DNA of 64,000 nt, from positions 92,918 to 156,917 of the forward strand of contig CAWEGM010000014.1 of the NCBI GenBank assembly GCA_963808565.1, read 5' to 3'. Position numbers and translations under genes: made by a program. This stretch comes from an uncultured Solirubrobacterales bacterium (GTDB taxonomy: Bacteria > Actinomycetota > Thermoleophilia > Solirubrobacterales > 70-9). Numbering within the stretch: position 1 is the first letter of the stretch; every line of letters begins with the position of its first letter. Below the pieces are notes generated by a model. It was not told the origin of the DNA and did no database searches. It saw only the letters and a program-made list of their open reading frames with translations. Positions 12,184-51,748 of this stretch are shown one piece after another.

Positions 12184-14249
<2,066 letters not shown>

Positions 14250-38984: not shown

Positions 38985-40637
38985 CTACCCGGGCGCTGTC
39001 AGGCGCTCCTCGGCGATGCCCGAGGCCGCCTCGCCGCTCCGACGCTGCCCGGTGACGGCGGCGAGGAAGTGCTCACGATCGAGCGCCAGGAGCATGGTCG
39101 GCATCGTCGCCCGCACCGACGCCGTTCGGGCGACATCGTGAAGGAGCGCGATCTCGCCGAACGACTCGCCGGCCGACTCGTTGCGCCGGAACGAGCCGTT
39201 CACGATCACCTCGACTTGCCCGCTCTCGATCAGGTAGAAGCGGTCCCCGAGCTCGCCCTGGGTGATGATCTCATCGCCGCGGGCCGCCGCTACCGGGCGG
39301 AGATCGTGGCTCAGCCGCTCCAGGGTGTCGACGGGCAGGGGGGCGAAGATCGGGTCGGCTCGGAGCAGCGCGAAGTGGCTCTCCTCGACCGGTGCGCCGA
39401 ACTCGAAGGAGCGAAGCGCGGACCATTCGGCGAGCGCGAACAGCGGCAGGAGCGCGCCGAACGCCAGCAGGGCGCCCTCGATCCCCAGCAGCGAGACCAG
39501 CAGGGGCGCCGAGATAGATCCGAGGGCCATGGCGACGAACCTGAGGGTCTCGAGCGTCCCGAGCACCCGCGCAAGGACCTCATCGGAGCCGAGGCGCTGG
39601 AGGAGCGTCCGGGAAGCGACGTCGACGAATTCGTATCCGATCCCGAGAACGGCCCAGGCGAGGTAGGCGGCGGCCGGAACGACCCAGATTGCGGGAAGCA
39701 TCAGGGCCGCGCCCGCGAGCAGGCTTCCCGCCACCAGTCCGGTTGCGAGCCGTTCGCGCGCGAGCATCATCGCCAGTAGCGCCACCGCGAGCAGCGCCCC
39801 CACCCCCCAGGAGGCGTTCAGATATCCGACGCTTCCCTCACCGATGTCGAGCAGGTCGAGGGCAACGATGACCACGAGCACGTCGGCAGCGCCCTCGAAG
39901 AAGACCAGCAGCGTGCGCACCGCGCCCACGAGACGCAGCTTCCGGTCGGCGACGAGTGTCGCAAGGCCTTGCACCGTCTCTCGAAGGGCGCCGCTCGCCG
40001 CCTCGACCGCGTAGGACGGTCGCTTGTCACGGTGCAGTCCGAGAAGCAGCAACGCGGCGATAAGGCTCGCGGCCGAGGCGGCGACGAACACGGCCTGGGG
40101 GCTGGTGGTCGCGAGCAGCACGCCGCCGAGCATTCCCGCGACGAGGAAGCCGATGTTGTCCATCGCGCTGTGTGCGACGTTGGAGGCGGACAGCTCCTGT
40201 GGCGACCTTGCGACCGCGGGCAGCAGGGCTCCCTCGGCGGGGACGTATGGACTCGAGGCGATCGTCACCAGCCCGGCGAGCAGGTAGACCACGCCCTCGG
40301 AGGTCCCGCTCGCGGCGGCTGCCGCTGCGCACCCGATTGCGATCGCGGTGAGCGTGGCGCTTCCGACCAGGACCAGGCGGCGGGAGTGCCGATCCCCGAG
40401 CAATCCTGCGACCGGGGAGACGAAGGCGGCCGGCAGCAGGCGGACCATAGCCGCGATGCCGACCGCAGTCGCCCCGCCTGCGTTGAACGCATAGACGCCG
40501 AGGGCGATCGCGAAGGACCAGATCGCAAATGAGGTTGCGCCCCAGGCGAGCTGCAGCTTCCTCACATCGGGATTGCCGAACACCGACCCGATCGCTCGAA
40601 GCGAGGTGCCGACATGGCGGGCAGCCTGCCCGATCAC
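38985..40637 (-). CDS. MFS transporter fused to a C-terminal cyclic-nucleotide-binding domain
   Basis: About 12 TM helices, then FALLRADPIFAPLPVDTLERL...GDEIITQGELGDRFYLIESGQVEV...ESFGEIALLHDVARTASVRA (cNMP phosphate-binding-cassette-like FGE...RTA). Confidence 0.75.
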   Translation of the reverse strand: MIGQAARHVGTSLRAIGSVFGNPDVRKLQLAWGATSFAIWSFAIALGVYAFNAGGATAVGIAAMVRLLPAAFVSPVAGLLGDRHSRRLVLVGSATLTAIAIGCAAAAAASGTSEGVVYLLAGLVTIASSPYVPAEGALLPAVARSPQELSASNVAHSAMDNIGFLVAGMLGGVLLATTSPQAVFVAASAASLIAALLLLGLHRDKRPSYAVEAASGALRETVQGLATLVADRKLRLVGAVRTLLVFFEGAADVLVVIVALDLLDIGEGSVGYLNASWGVGALLAVALLAMMLARERLATGLVAGSLLAGAALMLPAIWVVPAAAYLAWAVLGIGYEFVDVASRTLLQRLGSDEVLARVLGTLETLRFVAMALGSISAPLLVSLLGIEGALLAFGALLPLFALAEWSALRSFEFGAPVEESHFALLRADPIFAPLPVDTLERLSHDLRPVAAARGDEIITQGELGDRFYLIESGQVEVIVNGSFRRNESAGESFGEIALLHDVARTASVRATMPTMLLALDREHFLAAVTGQRRSGEAASGIAEERLTAPG

Positions 40638-44678: not shown

Positions 44679-45553
44679 TCACTTGAGCAATCGCGACAGG
44701 CGACGGTCCTTCAGAACTCGCCCGTCGGTCTGCTCCTCGGGGCAGTAGTTCATCTGGTGTTCCGCGAAGAACACCGCCTCGATCGTCGTCCCGCAGCGTG
44801 GACAGGGCTCGCCCTCGCGGCGGTGGACCTTCAGCGGCATCGGCATCTTGTCCGGGATCGCCTCCCCGACCACCTCCTCGTAGTGGTCGATGGCGTCACC
44901 CAGCACGTGCAGCGCCTCGTGCACCCGCTTGATCTCCTCGCCCCGGAGCTCGGCGCCCTTCTTGAACGGGGAGAGCTTCGCCTCCCAGAGGATCTCGTCG
45001 ACCCAGGAGCGGCCGATTCCGGCGATCACGCGTTGATCTCGGAGGAGGGGATGGAGGTGCCTGGGCTCGAGGATCCTCCCCGTGAGCTCCTCCAGCGGCC
45101 GGCGCGGGCCAGGCGTCCGGGCCGAGCGTGGCGACCATCTCCTCCTTCGTCCACCGCGTCGCGGGCCAGCAGCTTCGCCCAGGCCGACTGCTTCGTACCG
45201 AACTCCCGCAGGCGGAGCTCACGGCCGTCGGCGAGCCGGACGAGGATCCGCGAGCGGCGGTCTCGCAGCGACGCTCGCTTCTCGAACAGCTGCAGGCGAC
45301 CGGCCGACATCAGGTGGACCAGCAGGCTGAGCCTGCGGTCCGGCGGGACGCGGTCGCCGGTGACGAACCCGACCTCGAGCATCTTGCCGCGCCGATTCAC
45401 TCCGGCGACCCGCATTCCGACGAGCTCGTCCAGGGAGGGCGAGAAGGTCTTCAGCGTCGCGACGCCGGGCGCGAGGGCGGACTCGACCTCTGCGCCCTCG
45501 AGCGCGGTGCTCAACCGGCGCGCGGTGATCTCGACTTCCGGAAGCTCGGGCAC
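44679..45553 (-). pseudogene. Fpg/Nei-family DNA glycosylase, one frame switch about 45030-45110
   Basis: MPELPEVEITARRL N-terminus (ORF 45026..45553). H2TH and zinc finger IAGIGRSWVDEILWEAKLSP...CPRCGTTIE in ORF 44679..45029. Confidence 0.75.
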
Positions 45554-46860: not shown

Positions 46861-47811
46861 ATGTTCGAGATCTTCTTGCGGGTCGGCCTTGGAATCGTGC
46901 TCGCGGGCGCCGCGCTCGCGAAGCTTGCGTCACCGCGCGCGAGCGTCGCCGCGATGGCGGGATACGGCTTCCCCGAGGGCCCGGCACGCCGGATCGCCTG
47001 GGCGGCGCTGATCGCCATGGAGCTCGGCCTCGGGGTCGCCGTCGCGCTCGGTTCCGATGCCGCCGCCTACGCCGCGGCCGCGTTGATGGCCCTGTTCGCC
47101 GCGATCACCGTTGCGGCGCTGCTCCAGGGCCGCGCGGGAGCCCCGTGCGCCTGCTTCGGGCCCCGGTCGACGGTCTCAATGGTTTCGGTGCTGCGCAACC
47201 TGGCGCTTGCCGCGGCCTTCGCGGTCGTGCCTTCCGCGGGAGACGCCTCGGTCACCACGGAAGGCTGGCTCGCGATCGGAATCGGCGTCGCGCTGGCGGC
47301 ATCCGCGGGGCTCACGGTCGCGGTACTCGCCCTCGCCCGCGAGGTCGGGATGCTCCGGCTCCAGCTGGGCACCCAGGGGGCGCTGGAGATCGCGGGGGAG
47401 GGCCCCGAGATCGGCTCCCGTTCCGAGTCGCTCGCCTCCAGGATTCCGCTCGAGCCCGGCCGCTCCGGGTCCCATCAAACGCTTGGGCTTGCGGTGTTCA
47501 CCTCGGAGGGCTGCCATCTCTGCCAGACGCTCGCTCCTGCGGTCGAGAGCATCGCGAATGACCCCCGGGTCGCGGTGGCGAGCTTCGACGAGGTCGCGGA
47601 CGCCGAGGTCTGGCGCGGCCTCGGCGTGCCCGGCAGCCCGTTCGCCGTCGCCCTCGACGGTGCCGGGACGGTTCTCGCCAAGGGCACCTTCAACAGCCTC
47701 GCGCAGCTGGAGAGTGTTCTCGCGACTGCGGAGCGCCGGAGGGCGGAAGGTATCCCGGTCGCCGACGGTTGGAGCGAGGAGCGACCGGGGGGACTGCCCG
47801 TCGGTGCCTGA
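46861..47811 (+). CDS. MauE/DoxX-like membrane domain fused to MauD-like thioredoxin-fold domain
   Basis: N-terminus: 4 TM with GAPCACFGP...VLRNLALAAAF (MauE-family C-x-CFG signature as I recall it). C-terminus: LAVFTSEGCHLCQTLAPAVESI (CxxC thioredoxin-like). Confidence 0.65.
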   Translation: MFEIFLRVGLGIVLAGAALAKLASPRASVAAMAGYGFPEGPARRIAWAALIAMELGLGVAVALGSDAAAYAAAALMALFAAITVAALLQGRAGAPCACFGPRSTVSMVSVLRNLALAAAFAVVPSAGDASVTTEGWLAIGIGVALAASAGLTVAVLALAREVGMLRLQLGTQGALEIAGEGPEIGSRSESLASRIPLEPGRSGSHQTLGLAVFTSEGCHLCQTLAPAVESIANDPRVAVASFDEVADAEVWRGLGVPGSPFAVALDGAGTVLAKGTFNSLAQLESVLATAERRRAEGIPVADGWSEERPGGLPVGA

Positions 47812-48379
47812 CCATCTCGACGGGGCAATCGACTCGCTGGCGCGCAATACGTCGCGCCGCGGCTTTCTCGCGCGCGTGAGCGGTGCGCTGATGGCGCTCA
47901 CCGCGGCTCGGACCGTAGGCAGCCTGGTCGAGCCGGGCGACTCCGACGCCTTCCACTTCTGCGGGCACATCTTCACCACCGGCTCGTGTCCTCATCCGAA
48001 CGGGCTGCCGCGGATCGACTCGCGCGGCTTTCCGCTGCGCGCCGAGGACGGACATCCCGTCGACGACATCGGCCGCCCGGTGAACGAGGCCGGTCTGCCC
48101 CTCGACGACGACAGCCAGGTCCTGCGGGATCCCGACGGCCGACCGATACCACCGGCCCCCCGCACCCGGGTCTGCGACCGGGTCGAGGACATCTACGGGA
48201 TCCGGACGTCGATCGACGGTTCCTGGTACCGCTGCTGCGGGGGCAAGGTCCGGAAACTGGTCGACTGCTGCTCTCGCAACCGGACGCGGATCAACGGCGA
48301 CGCGGCGCTCACCGGCTACTGCTTCGGCGGTCGGAAGGTCTATTGCGTCATGTACTACGACACGAGGGTTCCGTGCTGA
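47804..48379 (+). CDS. Tat-signal, Cys-rich secreted protein resembling methylamine/aralkylamine dehydrogenase light chain (MauA-like)
   Basis: GTG 47804 overlaps the upstream stop by 8 nt. TSRRGFLARVSGALMALTAA Tat signal. The mature part has 10 Cys and 1 Trp. FHFCGHIFTTGSC, SWYRCCGGK, VDCCS, YCFGG and YCVMY line up by eye with CDYWRHCSIDGxxC, YRDCCG and WCFG of MauA. Confidence 0.5.
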   Translation: MPDHLDGAIDSLARNTSRRGFLARVSGALMALTAARTVGSLVEPGDSDAFHFCGHIFTTGSCPHPNGLPRIDSRGFPLRAEDGHPVDDIGRPVNEAGLPLDDDSQVLRDPDGRPIPPAPRTRVCDRVEDIYGIRTSIDGSWYRCCGGKVRKLVDCCSRNRTRINGDAALTGYCFGGRKVYCVMYYDTRVPC

Positions 48380-49863
48380 TGTCGCTGGGCCCCCTGGAGA
48401 TCGCGCTCGCCGCGGCCGCGCTCCTGATCGGCGCGACGGGGACGTTCTCCCCCTGCGGCCTCTCGATGATCGAGACGATCGGCCCGACCGGCCATACCGG
48501 CGGGAGGCGCACGGCGATCGCGGCGTGCGCCACCTTCCTTCCCGGGGCGGTCCTCGGTGGCCTTCTCACCTTCGGCTCCCTCGCGCTGGTCGGCGAGGGC
48601 CTGCACGACGCGGGGAGGGGCGCCTACATCGTGGCCGCCGCGATTGCGGCGCTCGCCGCCGCCCTGGAGATCCGCGGCACCCCGATCGTGCCGCAGATCC
48701 GCAGGCAGCTCCCGGAGCACTGGCGGCGGGTGATGCCGATGCCGGTCGCGGCGATGCTCTACGGGGTTCTGCTCGGGATCGGGTTCACCACCTTCGTCCT
48801 CTCCTTCGGCGTCTGGGCACTGGCCGGCGTCAGCCTTGCCCTCGGCGACCCGGGCCTCGGTCTCCTGATCGGGGCGGCGTTCGGAATCGGGCGGGCGATC
48901 CCGATCGTCTCGCTCGCACCGGCGGCCGGCGGACCGTTCGGGGTCAGGGCAACGGAGCTGATGTGCGAGCGGCCCGGCGTCTACCTCGGGCTGAGGCGAG
49001 GGGATGCGGCCGCGCTGCTCGTTGCCGCCCTCGCGCTGATCGTCGTCCCCGGCGACGCGGGCGCGCGCGGCGAGGTGTCCGCGCCGCAGGCGACGGATCC
49101 CGCCGCGACGATCGACGGGCTCGTCTACCAGCGCCTCGACGGGCAGGGAGTCCTCCGGCGCGGGGGGTCCGAGGTCGGGCTTTCCGGATCCAACCCGACG
49201 ATCGGTGGCCGCTTCGTCGCGGTCCTCAGCGAGGGACGGGTCCAGCTGCTGGACCGCAGCACGCTGGCCCAGATCGCAACGGTCGAGGCTCCGGGGGCCG
49301 ACGCGATCGCGGTCTCGGATCAGTGGCTCGTCTACAGGGCGCCGCTGGGAAGCGGCGGGGACGGGATGTTCTACCGGCACATCGGAGATCCCTCGGCCCC
49401 AGGGCCGATCGCACCCGTCGCCGCCGTCGGCGGCTCCGGCCAGGTCAGCCCGCCCAGCCTCGACGGCAGCAACCTCGTATTCGGGATCGCGACGCCGTCC
49501 GGAAGCAGGATCGTCCAGCGGATCGTCGGGACTCATACGCATCGTGCACTCGTCCGGTCCGGGCGACTCCTTCTCTTCGACCCCGCGGTCACCGGCCGCA
49601 CGTTCACCTATGTCCGAACGGATGCCCGCCGCAGCCGCCTGATGATCCGCAAGGTGCGGCGGCGCGGCCCCGGCAGAGTCCTGTTCACGGTGCGCCGCCG
49701 GACGGGGATCCTCTGGAGTACCGCCCTGATACCCGGCCTTGCCTACGTGACCGTGATGAAGCCGAGCTCATCGGGCCGCGACGCGACGATCGTCCAGGTC
49801 GATCGCAAGGGCAAGCGGCTTCGCACGCACGCGCCGCGCGGCGGCGGCAACCACAGGTTCTAG
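48379..49863 (+). CDS. DsbD/CcdA-like (MauF-like?) polytopic membrane domain fused to a beta-strand-rich extracytoplasmic domain
   Basis: ATG 48379 overlaps the upstream TGA (TGATG). TM1 has GTFSPCGLSM (SPC motif of thiol-disulfide transporters). About 7 TM, then about 270 aa with repeated strand motifs (GLVYQR, RFVAVL, QWLVYR, NLVFGI, TFTYVR). Confidence 0.5.
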   Translation: MSLGPLEIALAAAALLIGATGTFSPCGLSMIETIGPTGHTGGRRTAIAACATFLPGAVLGGLLTFGSLALVGEGLHDAGRGAYIVAAAIAALAAALEIRGTPIVPQIRRQLPEHWRRVMPMPVAAMLYGVLLGIGFTTFVLSFGVWALAGVSLALGDPGLGLLIGAAFGIGRAIPIVSLAPAAGGPFGVRATELMCERPGVYLGLRRGDAAALLVAALALIVVPGDAGARGEVSAPQATDPAATIDGLVYQRLDGQGVLRRGGSEVGLSGSNPTIGGRFVAVLSEGRVQLLDRSTLAQIATVEAPGADAIAVSDQWLVYRAPLGSGGDGMFYRHIGDPSAPGPIAPVAAVGGSGQVSPPSLDGSNLVFGIATPSGSRIVQRIVGTHTHRALVRSGRLLLFDPAVTGRTFTYVRTDARRSRLMIRKVRRRGPGRVLFTVRRRTGILWSTALIPGLAYVTVMKPSSSGRDATIVQVDRKGKRLRTHAPRGGGNHRF

Positions 49864-49916: not shown

Positions 49917-49938
49917 GGGCGGGATTCGCGGGCACAAG

Positions 49939-49966
49939 AAAGGGGCCCGCTTGCGCGGGCCCCTTT
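49939..49966. terminator. bidirectional intrinsic terminator
   Basis: AAAGGGGCCCGC-TTGC-GCGGGCCCCTTT: 12-bp perfect stem with T-runs on both strands. It lies between convergent genes ending at 49863 (+) and about 50002 (-). Confidence 0.75.
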
Positions 49967-50001
49967 CTGCGGTCTATCTCGGGCCGCGTCGTTCGGTTCG
50001 G

Positions 50002-51062: not shown

Positions 51063-51078
51063 AACCACAGGTTCTAGG
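51063..51078 (+). repeat. right copy of 16-nt direct repeat AACCACAGGTTCTAGG
   Basis: Exact match to 49849-49864. It contains CTA (51074-76), the complement of the TAG stop of the minus-strand gene 51074..51748. Confidence 0.95.
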
Positions 51079-51748
51079 GTGGGGTAAGCGCCCGGAGCGG
51101 GGGATCGGCGTAGCCGACCGCCCGGTAGAACGTCGCGCTCGGCTTCGCGAGGAGCCAGCGCCCGCCCTTGGGCCGGAGGTAGATCACGTCCTCCTCGATC
51201 GAGGGCTCTTGGCGGTCGCGGAAGCGGTGGACGACGGTCGCTGTCACCCGGGCGCCGACCCCCTCGACGGAGACCGCCGTGACCTCGACGATGCGGGTCC
51301 GCCTCCAGGCGGGCCCGCCGGCAGCCGGTCGGCTTCCGAGCGAGGCGCCGACCGAGCCCACGCAGCCGCCGCGGCGCTTCGGCAGCTCCGAGAGCTGCAG
51401 CGCGCCCGGTGCGAAGAACCCGCATGCGGCCCCCGCGTCGCGGTTGTTGAGGGCGTCGACGTACGAGCTGACCACCGCCGCGACCGCCGCCGAGTCGACC
51501 TCTGAGAGTTCACCGGTCTCTGGTCCCGCGGCGGCAGCCTCGGGACTCGCCTCACCGGCGGGCCCATCCTCGTCCTCTTCGGCGTGCTCGTGTGCCGCGT
51601 CTGGGGGCTCGGGCTCCGGGTGGGCAGTAGCAGTGGTCGAGAGGGTCGTGTTCGCGGCCACGTCCGCATCGTCGTCCGAGCCGCCGCAGGCGGGCGCGAT
51701 CAGGGCCGCGCAGCCGAGGATCGCCGCCGTCAGAGGTCCCGCTCTCAC
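51074..51748 (-). CDS. lipoprotein, hypothetical (NTF2-like C-terminal domain suspected)
   Basis: MRAGPLTAAILGCAALIAPACGG lipobox, an acidic His-rich linker, then SSYVDALNNRDAGAACGFFAPG. No firm family. Confidence 0.55.
   Translation of the reverse strand: MRAGPLTAAILGCAALIAPACGGSDDDADVAANTTLSTTATAHPEPEPPDAAHEHAEEDEDGPAGEASPEAAAAGPETGELSEVDSAAVAAVVSSYVDALNNRDAGAACGFFAPGALQLSELPKRRGGCVGSVGASLGSRPAAGGPAWRRTRIVEVTAVSVEGVGARVTATVVHRFRDRQEPSIEEDVIYLRPKGGRWLLAKPSATFYRAVGYADPPLRALTPP

Follow-up and report, generated by a model that had tools for sequence, protein, structure and literature searches.

The roles of the genes mauF, mauE, and mauD in the biogenesis of methylamine dehydrogenase (MADH) have been defined genetically, though not mechanistically, since the 1990s. 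The reference for comparison is the Paracoccus denitrificans cluster mauRFBEDACJGMN (NC_008688, locus L081), in which mauA encodes a light chain of the tryptophan tryptophylquinone (TTQ) type. DsbB-like action of MauE has been shown only in a 2026 preprint (10.64898/2026.03.05.709764), which reports that MauE substitutes for DsbB in Escherichia coli, that its active site is CXC-F-G with the CXC essential, that 8.2% of MauE entries carry a fused thioredoxin fold, and that MauE is a generalist oxidase found mostly without MauA. In Streptomyces, clusters proposed by decRiPPter as candidates for peptides made by the ribosome and modified after translation (RiPPs) place mauE and mauD beside precursors with at least eight cysteines, with no other mau genes (PMC7794033). 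Here we analyse a 64-kb stretch of DNA from an uncultured Solirubrobacterales bacterium (contig CAWEGM010000014.1; hereafter the window; ~70% G+C), in which three overlapping genes, termed genes 1, 2, and 3, are predicted to encode a MauE-MauD fusion, a Cys-rich protein with a twin-arginine translocation (Tat) leader, and a MauF homologue fused to an outer repeat domain. The reading we favour, with some reserve, is that they form a module of the MauE/D/F type, dedicated to the oxidative folding and assembly of a new exported protein rich in disulfides.

The layout of the locus points to co-translation of the three genes (Table 1). A first-pass annotation of the window had described overlaps of 8 nt and 1 nt and proposed a single translational unit. 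Both overlaps are confirmed by the open reading frames (ORFs) and the junction sequences, with genes 2 and 3 meeting at TGATG (1 nt shared), and the overlaps together with co-conservation across genomes bear out the proposed unit. The motifs quoted in that annotation are all present: PCACFG and CHLC in gene 1, twin-arginine SRRGFLARV in gene 2, and SPCG in gene 3. A public 359-kb NCBI/ENA contig annotates three proteins with identical ends. Downstream, 74 nt past the gene 3 stop, a perfect 14-bp inverted repeat with a 4-nt loop is probably a bidirectional terminator hairpin that closes the operon; Rfam small-RNA matches to it occur on both strands, all sub-threshold. On balance, genes 1–3 appear to constitute a self-contained, translationally coupled operon for one extracytoplasmic disulfide-rich protein.

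Thermoleophilia are abundant, poorly studied soil actinobacteria, and the module belongs to the conserved core traits of this class. Gene 2 relatives are carried by 492 species genomes of the clade (one genome scanned per species, giving 492 stretches), the best 80 of which served for locus comparisons. At 90% clustering, gene 2 has 2393 homologues, all unnamed or "hypothetical" apart from one titled twin-arginine signal protein by NCBI, and those with a taxon label are from Solirubrobacterales or Thermoleophilia and no other group; gene 3 has 1381 homologues. The order gene 1–gene 2–gene 3 is the same in 79 of the best 80 loci, the remaining locus being interrupted by a contig end. Of the 79 loci with both genes, all but six retain the 8-nt overlap of genes 1 and 2; the overlap of genes 2 and 3 is mostly 1, 4, or 7 nt across related loci. 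The 80 loci are not independent, since synteny with nadA and transketolase is common to them. The trio is also retained in four divergent Thermoleophilia, Miltoncostaea marina and three metagenomic contigs, in three unrelated neighbourhoods (47–55% identity to P0245, a divergent gene 2 homologue that served as query). The trio stays intact with different flanks, and the three genes therefore form a conserved unit; the survey of co-conservation that the first-pass annotation had proposed thus turned out in its favour. Across the order, gene 2 identity is 62–86%, roughly at the level of NadA, and its core-genome position is fixed. Separately, a metagenomic protein of 453 aa (P0242) joins MauE, MauD, and gene 2 homologues in one ORF call with the Tat motif kept internally; it represents a triple fusion of natural origin or else an indel in the assembly.

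Homology identifies gene 1 as a true MauE-MauD fusion. Specifically, residues 4–123 match Pfam MauE (PF07291) at 63.4 bits (cutoff 27, E = 3.4e-17), and residues 147–246 match the MauD model TIGR02661 with E = 1e-11, the best and sole significant NCBIfam match of the protein, at a score (44.6 bits) under the equivalog cutoff of 188.6. Against the P. denitrificans proteins, BLASTP gives 7e-14 for MauD (30% identity over 164 aa, spanning the membrane anchor and CxxC) and 1e-4 for MauE (around the CxC motif), and tblastn of MauD onto the window gives 9e-12. In the MauD alignment, the gene 1 product has the traits of MauD: an N-terminal transmembrane (TM) anchor, a juxtamembrane R-x-VG-x-L, and a thioredoxin fold with CxxC. 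Hydropathy predicts five TM segments, comprising the four MauE helices and a fifth that serves as anchor, with the thioredoxin-fold domain extracytoplasmic. The protein has exactly four cysteines (C96, C98, C218, and C221), and these, together with E54 in TM2, show at least 97% conservation among 79 homologues. C96 and C98 lie in the loop ahead of TM4. The MauE and MauD homology and the conserved cysteines therefore point to a disulfide generator fused to its carrier, here specifically a MauD-like one; this architecture is of a known type, and it agrees with the first-pass description of a MauE-type membrane domain joined to a MauD-like thioredoxin fold.

The N-terminal half of gene 3 is, by profile comparison, a MauF homologue. 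In a 20-sequence profile, residues 5–186 align with P. denitrificans MauF over 177 columns (hhalign probability 98.2%, E = 5.7e-14), and the alignment takes in the TWSPCG and PQxRxQ[LV]P motifs. Pairwise comparison of MauF with gene 3 gives 1e-3 by BLASTP and 1.2e-6 by tblastn onto the window, and hhalign pairs this half with a MauF-like protein of Thermomicrobium roseum at 94.4%. Gene 3 matches no Pfam or NCBIfam family; P. denitrificans MauF itself likewise matches neither library, so the silence of the libraries on gene 3 is uninformative. The first-pass annotation had called this domain DsbD/CcdA-like and offered MauF equivalence as a mere possibility; the latter is upheld and the former is not. 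In particular, gene 3 of the window does not match DsbD/CcdA (PF02683), only one of 20 homologues does so, at E = 0.44, and C26 alone is invariant. In a plasmid collection, MauF occurs in just 15 records, the same 15 that carry mauA annotated as the amicyanin-type MADH small subunit, which makes MauF, unlike MauE, a specific marker of light-chain biogenesis; tblastn of the MauF-like half of gene 3 against plasmids gave no match. Hydropathy of gene 3 predicts six TM segments, the last at residues 205–228.

The outer domain of gene 3 is likely, from a weak profile similarity, to be a small TolB-type β-propeller. It contains an internal repeat of ~49 aa (hhalign 94%), and a diverse outer-domain profile matches 11 TolB propeller sequences from the Protein Data Bank (PDB), at E values of 4e-4 to 2e-3 and across just two blades, with no other noteworthy match; there is no match to Pfam PD40. 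With ~265 aa and a 49-aa repeat, the domain would hold five or six blades at most. The extra TM segment and repeated domain of about 270 aa noted at first pass are thus borne out, while the suggestion that the domain is a reduced MauB is not: comparison with MauB gives E > 1 by BLASTP and 0.3–0.6% by hhalign, and the resemblance is to generic TolB repeats only. No similarity is found between the domain and the β-rich paralogues of T. roseum. In M. marina and a related contig, the gene after gene 2 encodes the repeat domain alone behind an alanine-rich, signal-like N-terminus (263 aa in M. marina, aligned by hhalign at 99.1% with gene 3 residues 216–470), and no MauF-like sequence lies within 6–10 kb of gene 2. 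Since the repeat protein adjoins gene 2 where MauF is missing, the repeat domain, not MauF, is the constant companion of gene 2. M. marina is a cultured species and a potential experimental host. Its sequence (CP064655, locus L090) also has, at 13402–14034 (−), a separate DsbA-family gene and a CvpA/trypsin-like gene, ~3 kb from the module.

Gene 2 encodes a real, constrained protein, as indicated by its 2393 homologues, its ten invariant cysteines, and a confident structural model. The long Tat signal and Cys-rich mature domain described at first pass both stand. Among 230 homologues, the invariant residues are the ten cysteines, H55, W141, Y172, R143, R150, D154, and R162-x-N-G-D. An AlphaFold2 (AF2) model of the mature domain, computed from a 134-sequence alignment with the leader trimmed and the divergent subfamily included, has a mean predicted local distance difference test (pLDDT) of 92.2 and a predicted TM-score (pTM) of 0.84; it supersedes an earlier model of full-length gene 2 from 30 sequences, which had a pLDDT of 54 and meaningless Foldseek matches. 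The model begins with a short N-terminal hairpin and a regular arm formed by five xDxxGxP[VI] repeats; a single helix and a long sheet of three strands follow, and this helix and sheet region holds eight of the ten invariant cysteines plus W141 and Y172. Foldseek of the model finds nothing in the PDB at E ≤ 0.001 (best E 0.36; top TM-score 0.24 among the 50 matches listed) and nothing in BFVD at the same threshold, and the sequence matches no Pfam, NCBIfam, or PDB entry. The middle repeats give strong hidden Markov model (HMM) matches to repeat arrays of eukaryotic giant proteins (DUF3659, plectin-repeat proteins), a likeness that is most likely one of repeat lattice only. The idea that HFCGH..CPHP forms a Rieske-like or metal site was dropped, as H55 alone remains invariant once divergent members are counted. 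Gene 2 thus represents a large uncharacterised family, of ~2400 sequences at 90% clustering, with no Pfam model and with a predicted fold for which no solved structure gives a match.

The first-pass annotation had aligned mature gene 2 by eye with TTQ light chains, and here the evidence goes against it: membership of gene 2 in the TTQ light-chain family is rejected. Against PF02975 and TIGR02659, gene 2 gives nothing at E ≤ 1, while the same models recover P. denitrificans MauA (2.8e-120) and a divergent T. roseum protein (9e-9 with Pfam, 2.9e-7 with NCBIfam). Searches of PDB sequences with phmmer and with a profile (hmmsearch), in a library that includes chains of MADH and of aromatic amine dehydrogenase (AADH), show no MADH or AADH chain among the matches listed, and no light chain of either enzyme is among the 50 Foldseek matches listed. 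With MauA alone or with a nine-sequence MauA/AauA profile, hhalign aligns the leader only (92.6%, 31 columns); the leaders of TorA and NapA reach scores close to those of most MauA leaders, although those of Novosphingobium and Indioceanicola MauA score clearly higher, and the leader match is mostly Tat consensus. For the mature domain, hhalign against light chains gives a probability of 0.3–0.5% (P = 0.1–0.17) with an alignment that conflicts with the one drawn by eye, and a MauA mature-domain HMM scores 0.2 and 1.4 bits, values that 25% and 8% of shuffles preserving composition also reach. Two alignments, one by eye and one by hhalign, contradict each other and neither is significant; the visual alignment therefore counts as no evidence. 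Gene 2 may be a remote descendant of a light chain. A single hint points that way: an HMM of the C-terminal 72 residues of gene 2 scores 3.6 bits against T. roseum light-chain-like protein 2, aligning DGSWYRCC...KLVDCC of gene 2 with TSSWYMCC...RYIDCC, the hairpin of TTQ Trp57. The score is equalled by 40 of 20000 shuffles, a marginal result (p ~0.002, or ~0.04 corrected for 18 tests). In this marginally supported alignment W141, the sole invariant Trp of gene 2, sits on Trp57, and extending the alignment by eye places invariant Y172 at the position of Trp108.

The module stands apart from the remaining mau genes. Using all ten P. denitrificans mau products as tblastn queries, we searched the window and the 80 loci (±8 kb). 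In the window, only MauF and MauD were detected; in the 80 loci, MauF was detected in 68, MauE in 38, and MauD in 72. At tblastn sensitivity, MauA, MauB, MauC, MauG, MauJ, MauM, and MauN were found neither in the window nor within 8 kb of the 80 loci, which agrees with the first-pass remark that the window lacks mauB, mauG, and amicyanin, and extends it to the related loci. A mau-like cluster with no MauG within 8 kb is present on the T. roseum megaplasmid (NC_011961, 473850–490068; L082). This cluster contains two true, divergent PF02975 proteins, one of them unannotated at about L082:7900–8315; four β-rich paralogues of ~400 aa, and a fifth copy fused to the N-terminus of MauE (596 aa); a MauD-like gene; and a MauF-like gene, the annotated start of which is apparently truncated.

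These observations suggest a working scheme for the module. Gene 2 would be exported through Tat, its motif suggesting cleavage of the leader after SDA. The MauE half of gene 1, with its CXC-F-G, would generate disulfides and pass electrons to the quinone pool, by analogy with the published DsbB-like activity of MauE, and the MauD-type domain (CHLC), held outside by the fifth TM helix, would oxidise the ten cysteines of gene 2. The MauF-like domain of gene 3 may assist in some way, as for MADH, and the TolB-like outer domain may capture gene 2 or partner it permanently, as the MADH propeller subunit holds the small subunit. Gene 2 probably partners with the propeller-like domain, because of the fusion in gene 3 and because the repeat protein travels with gene 2 where MauF is missing. 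The MauD-like half of gene 1, and its coupling to one client and a MauF homologue, point to a dedicated rather than generalist role. The first-pass proposal of a dedicated export and disulfide-handling system is supported to this extent, with a client that is not recognisable as a light chain. Overall, it seems somewhat probable that the MADH light-chain toolkit of MauF, MauE, and MauD has been re-used for a different client family, with the MauG/MauB part absent nearby.

Three points weigh against a dedicated module. MauE-thioredoxin fusions are now viewed as generalist oxidases, and gene 1 may have many clients; the operon, near-universal in the order, has housekeeping neighbours (nadA, transketolase), which fits a general role equally well; and the part assigned to MauF is a guess. 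The first two lead to a reading in which gene 1 is the DsbB-DsbA equivalent for the exported proteome of Thermoleophilia, and genes 2 and 3 are co-transcribed abundant clients or unrelated envelope proteins. The frequent occurrence of MauE as a thioredoxin-fused generalist without MauA is what such a system would look like, as is a core syntenic housekeeping neighbourhood shared by 492 species genomes. However, the kept overlaps of 8 nt and of 1–7 nt imply stoichiometric co-expression of the three genes, the trio is unbroken when its flanks change completely, the unit includes a homologue of MauF, which is elsewhere specific to MADH clusters, and the separate DsbA-family gene near the M. marina module indicates that other Dsb components exist. 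We regard a general disulfide system as rather unlikely, with appreciable residual weight. That the locus makes a secreted bioactive Cys-rich product, as a RiPP-like or bacteriocin-like cluster with MauE and MauD as tailoring enzymes, is very improbable. The pairing of mauE/mauD with precursors of at least eight cysteines, and no other mau gene, in Streptomyces candidate RiPP families (PMC7794033) offers a precedent, but gene 2 is modelled as a 142-aa folded domain and not as a short core peptide, it is conserved across the order about as well as NadA at a fixed core-genome position, and no linked transporter, protease, or immunity gene was seen.

A further reading retains the chemistry of the mau system. 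Gene 2 would be a far-diverged light chain of the TTQ or cysteine tryptophylquinone (CTQ) type, with a protein-derived cofactor around W141 and either Y172 or a Cys, and the propeller-like domain of gene 3 would be the counterpart of the heavy chain. Three homologues of MADH light-chain accessory proteins do flank gene 2, which stands at the mauA position, has a precursor close to MauA in length (191 versus 188 aa), and has a similarly long Tat leader; a small Cys-rich subunit with a propeller-like partner echoes the architecture of MADH; W141 and Y172 are invariant; and the HMM of the gene 2 C-terminus singles out the hairpin of Trp57 in T. roseum protein 2 (SWYMCC..DCC versus SWYRCC..DCC) at a score reached by 40 of 20000 shuffles. 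Against this, PF02975 and TIGR02659 miss gene 2 yet catch the divergent T. roseum protein, the mature-domain profiles give P values of 0.1–0.17 and contradict the alignment by eye (shuffle p 0.08–0.25), and the confident AF2 model has a helix and a repeat arm and no PDB match. Moreover, the alignment as extended by eye has an invariant Tyr in place of the second TTQ Trp, neither MauG nor MauB is found in the window or near the 80 loci, and the propeller-like domain is unlike MauB in sequence. A light chain of this kind is therefore unlikely. Little probability likewise attaches to the fuller proposal that gene 2 and the propeller-like domain together make up an extracytoplasmic redox enzyme, or a quinoprotein-like complex, of a new kind, in which gene 2 would be a radically remodelled descendant of a TTQ light chain whose protein-derived cofactor or redox-active disulfide site (W141, Y172, H55, and two CC pairs) is made without MauG by the MauE/D/F homologues. 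The dedicated folding and assembly module remains the reading we prefer.

Table 1. Features of the module and its surroundings in the 64-kb window
Feature	Position	Strand	Size	Basis or remark
Gene 1	46861–47811	+	316 aa	ORF call
MauE active-site motif C96-A-C98-F-G	47146–47160	+		Translation; C96, C98, F99, and G100 at least 97% conserved in 79 homologues
MauD-type CxxC, C218-H-L-C221	47512–47523	+		Translation; aligns with P. denitrificans MauD CPVC; at least 97% conserved
Gene 1/gene 2 junction, GTGCCTGA	47804–47811	+	8-nt overlap	GTG start of gene 2 within stop region of gene 1
Gene 2	47804–48379	+	191 aa	ORF call; GTG start
Tat-type leader of gene 2	47804–47950	+	residues 1–49	TSRRGFLARV, h-region, SDA ahead of predicted cleavage
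Mature domain of gene 2	47951–48376	+	~142 aa	FHFCGH..CPHP N-terminal hairpin, repeats, helix, three-stranded sheet
Five xDxxGxP[VI] repeats of gene 2	47999–48172	+	residues 66–123	Modelled as regular arm, pLDDT >90
Gene 3	48379–49863	+	494 aa	ORF call
MauF-like polytopic membrane domain of gene 3	48379–48948	+		Motifs TFSPCG and PQIRRQLPEHWRR..GIGFTTFV
Sixth TM segment of gene 3	48991–49062	+		Hydropathy; joins MauF-like to outer domain
C-terminal repeat domain of gene 3	49063–49863	+	~265 aa	Internal repeat, TolB profile matches
Inverted repeat, AGAAAGGGGCCCGC / GCGGGCCCCTTTCT	49937–49968		14-bp arms	Probable terminator hairpin
Lower-GC segment	49864–51073		~1.2 kb	GC ~0.66
ORF in lower-GC segment	50002–50733	−	243 aa	
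Lipoprotein-like gene	51074–51748	−	224 aa	
fpg	44679–45553	−		Apparently split
fpg, Fapy N-domain ORF	45026–45553	−		
fpg, H2TH and zinc-finger ORF	44679–45029	−		
Transporter gene	38985–40637	−	550 aa	

Housekeeping genes flank the module in the window: upstream are nadC, an ABC-2 transporter, fpg, and nadA, and downstream are a split transketolase, ftsEX, ctpA, and RNase R. Between gene 3 and the conserved downstream gene lies a segment of lower GC content that is missing from all 80 related loci; its ORF has a signal-like N-terminus, a six-fold NAT (Asn-Ala-Thr) repeat, and no Pfam match. The convergent lipoprotein-like gene beyond it, with a signal, an A-C-G-G lipobox-like site, and no Pfam match, adjoins the module in 68 of the 80 Solirubrobacterales loci. 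It was rejected as a module member and probably lies outside the module, because it is missing from the divergent Thermoleophilia contexts. The two ORFs into which fpg is apparently split overlap by 4 nt, which may reflect a frameshift, a pseudogene, or a gene that is genuinely split. Further upstream, a major facilitator superfamily transporter is fused to a C-terminal cyclic-nucleotide-binding domain.

What is new is a known Mau-type light-chain biogenesis toolkit that appears to serve a new client, and it is worth experimental follow-up. The module isolates MauF, MauE, and MauD with a single client, and their roles, above all that of MauF, would become separable from TTQ chemistry.

Like the published MauE-thioredoxin fusion oxidases, gene 1 has CXC-F-G, the Glu in TM2, four MauE helices, and a fused thioredoxin fold; unlike them, its thioredoxin half is specifically MauD-like and it is coupled to a single Cys-rich client and a MauF homologue. 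The outer domain of gene 3 is tentatively linked to TolB-type (PD40) β-propellers by the 11 profile matches and the internal repeat of ~49 residues, and differs in its small size (~265 residues), in having no TolB N-terminal domain, and in being fused to, or encoded beside, Mau-type proteins. Gene 2 resembles TTQ light chains (MauA/AauA; PF02975, TIGR02659; PDB 2BBK chain L and 2AGY chain D) in precursor length (191 versus 188 aa), in having a twin-arginine leader that is long, in its many disulfide cysteines, some of them in vicinal CC pairs, and in a local SW-x-x-CC...DCC hairpin motif. Differences from the light chains include 10 cysteines in place of 12, a 58-residue repeat insert, an α-helix, a Tyr where extension of the alignment by eye would put the second TTQ Trp, the lack of a nearby MauG, and the lack of a family-model match, of significant mature-domain similarity, and of a fold match.

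At the level of gene clusters, the locus resembles the Streptomyces candidate RiPP clusters (PMC7794033) in having actinobacterial mauE and mauD beside a small Cys-rich ORF with other mau genes missing, but its client is a 142-aa folded domain that comes with a propeller-like partner as well as a MauF homologue, and the module belongs to the core genome, not the accessory one. As in the P. denitrificans mau cluster, MauF, MauE, and MauD homologues surround a small Cys-rich protein with a Tat leader at the mauA position, and MauD follows MauE. Here, however, MauE and MauD are fused, MauF carries a fused repeat domain and is encoded downstream, not upstream, and the module is without mauA, mauB, mauC, mauJ, mauG, mauM, and mauN, its client not being a recognisable light chain. 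The T. roseum cluster differs in that its small proteins are PF02975 members with both Trp residues and in that its β domain, unrelated in sequence to that of gene 3, is on MauE, not MauF. It is alike in having a non-proteobacterial MauE/MauD-like/MauF-like set, in which a Mau membrane protein carries a β-rich domain, and small Tat proteins that are rich in Cys and have Cys as their last residue; MauG is likewise missing within 8 kb. The T. roseum set thus indicates that, in a second lineage outside the Proteobacteria, the MauE/D/F trio accompanies small Cys-rich Tat proteins and fuses to β-rich outer domains.

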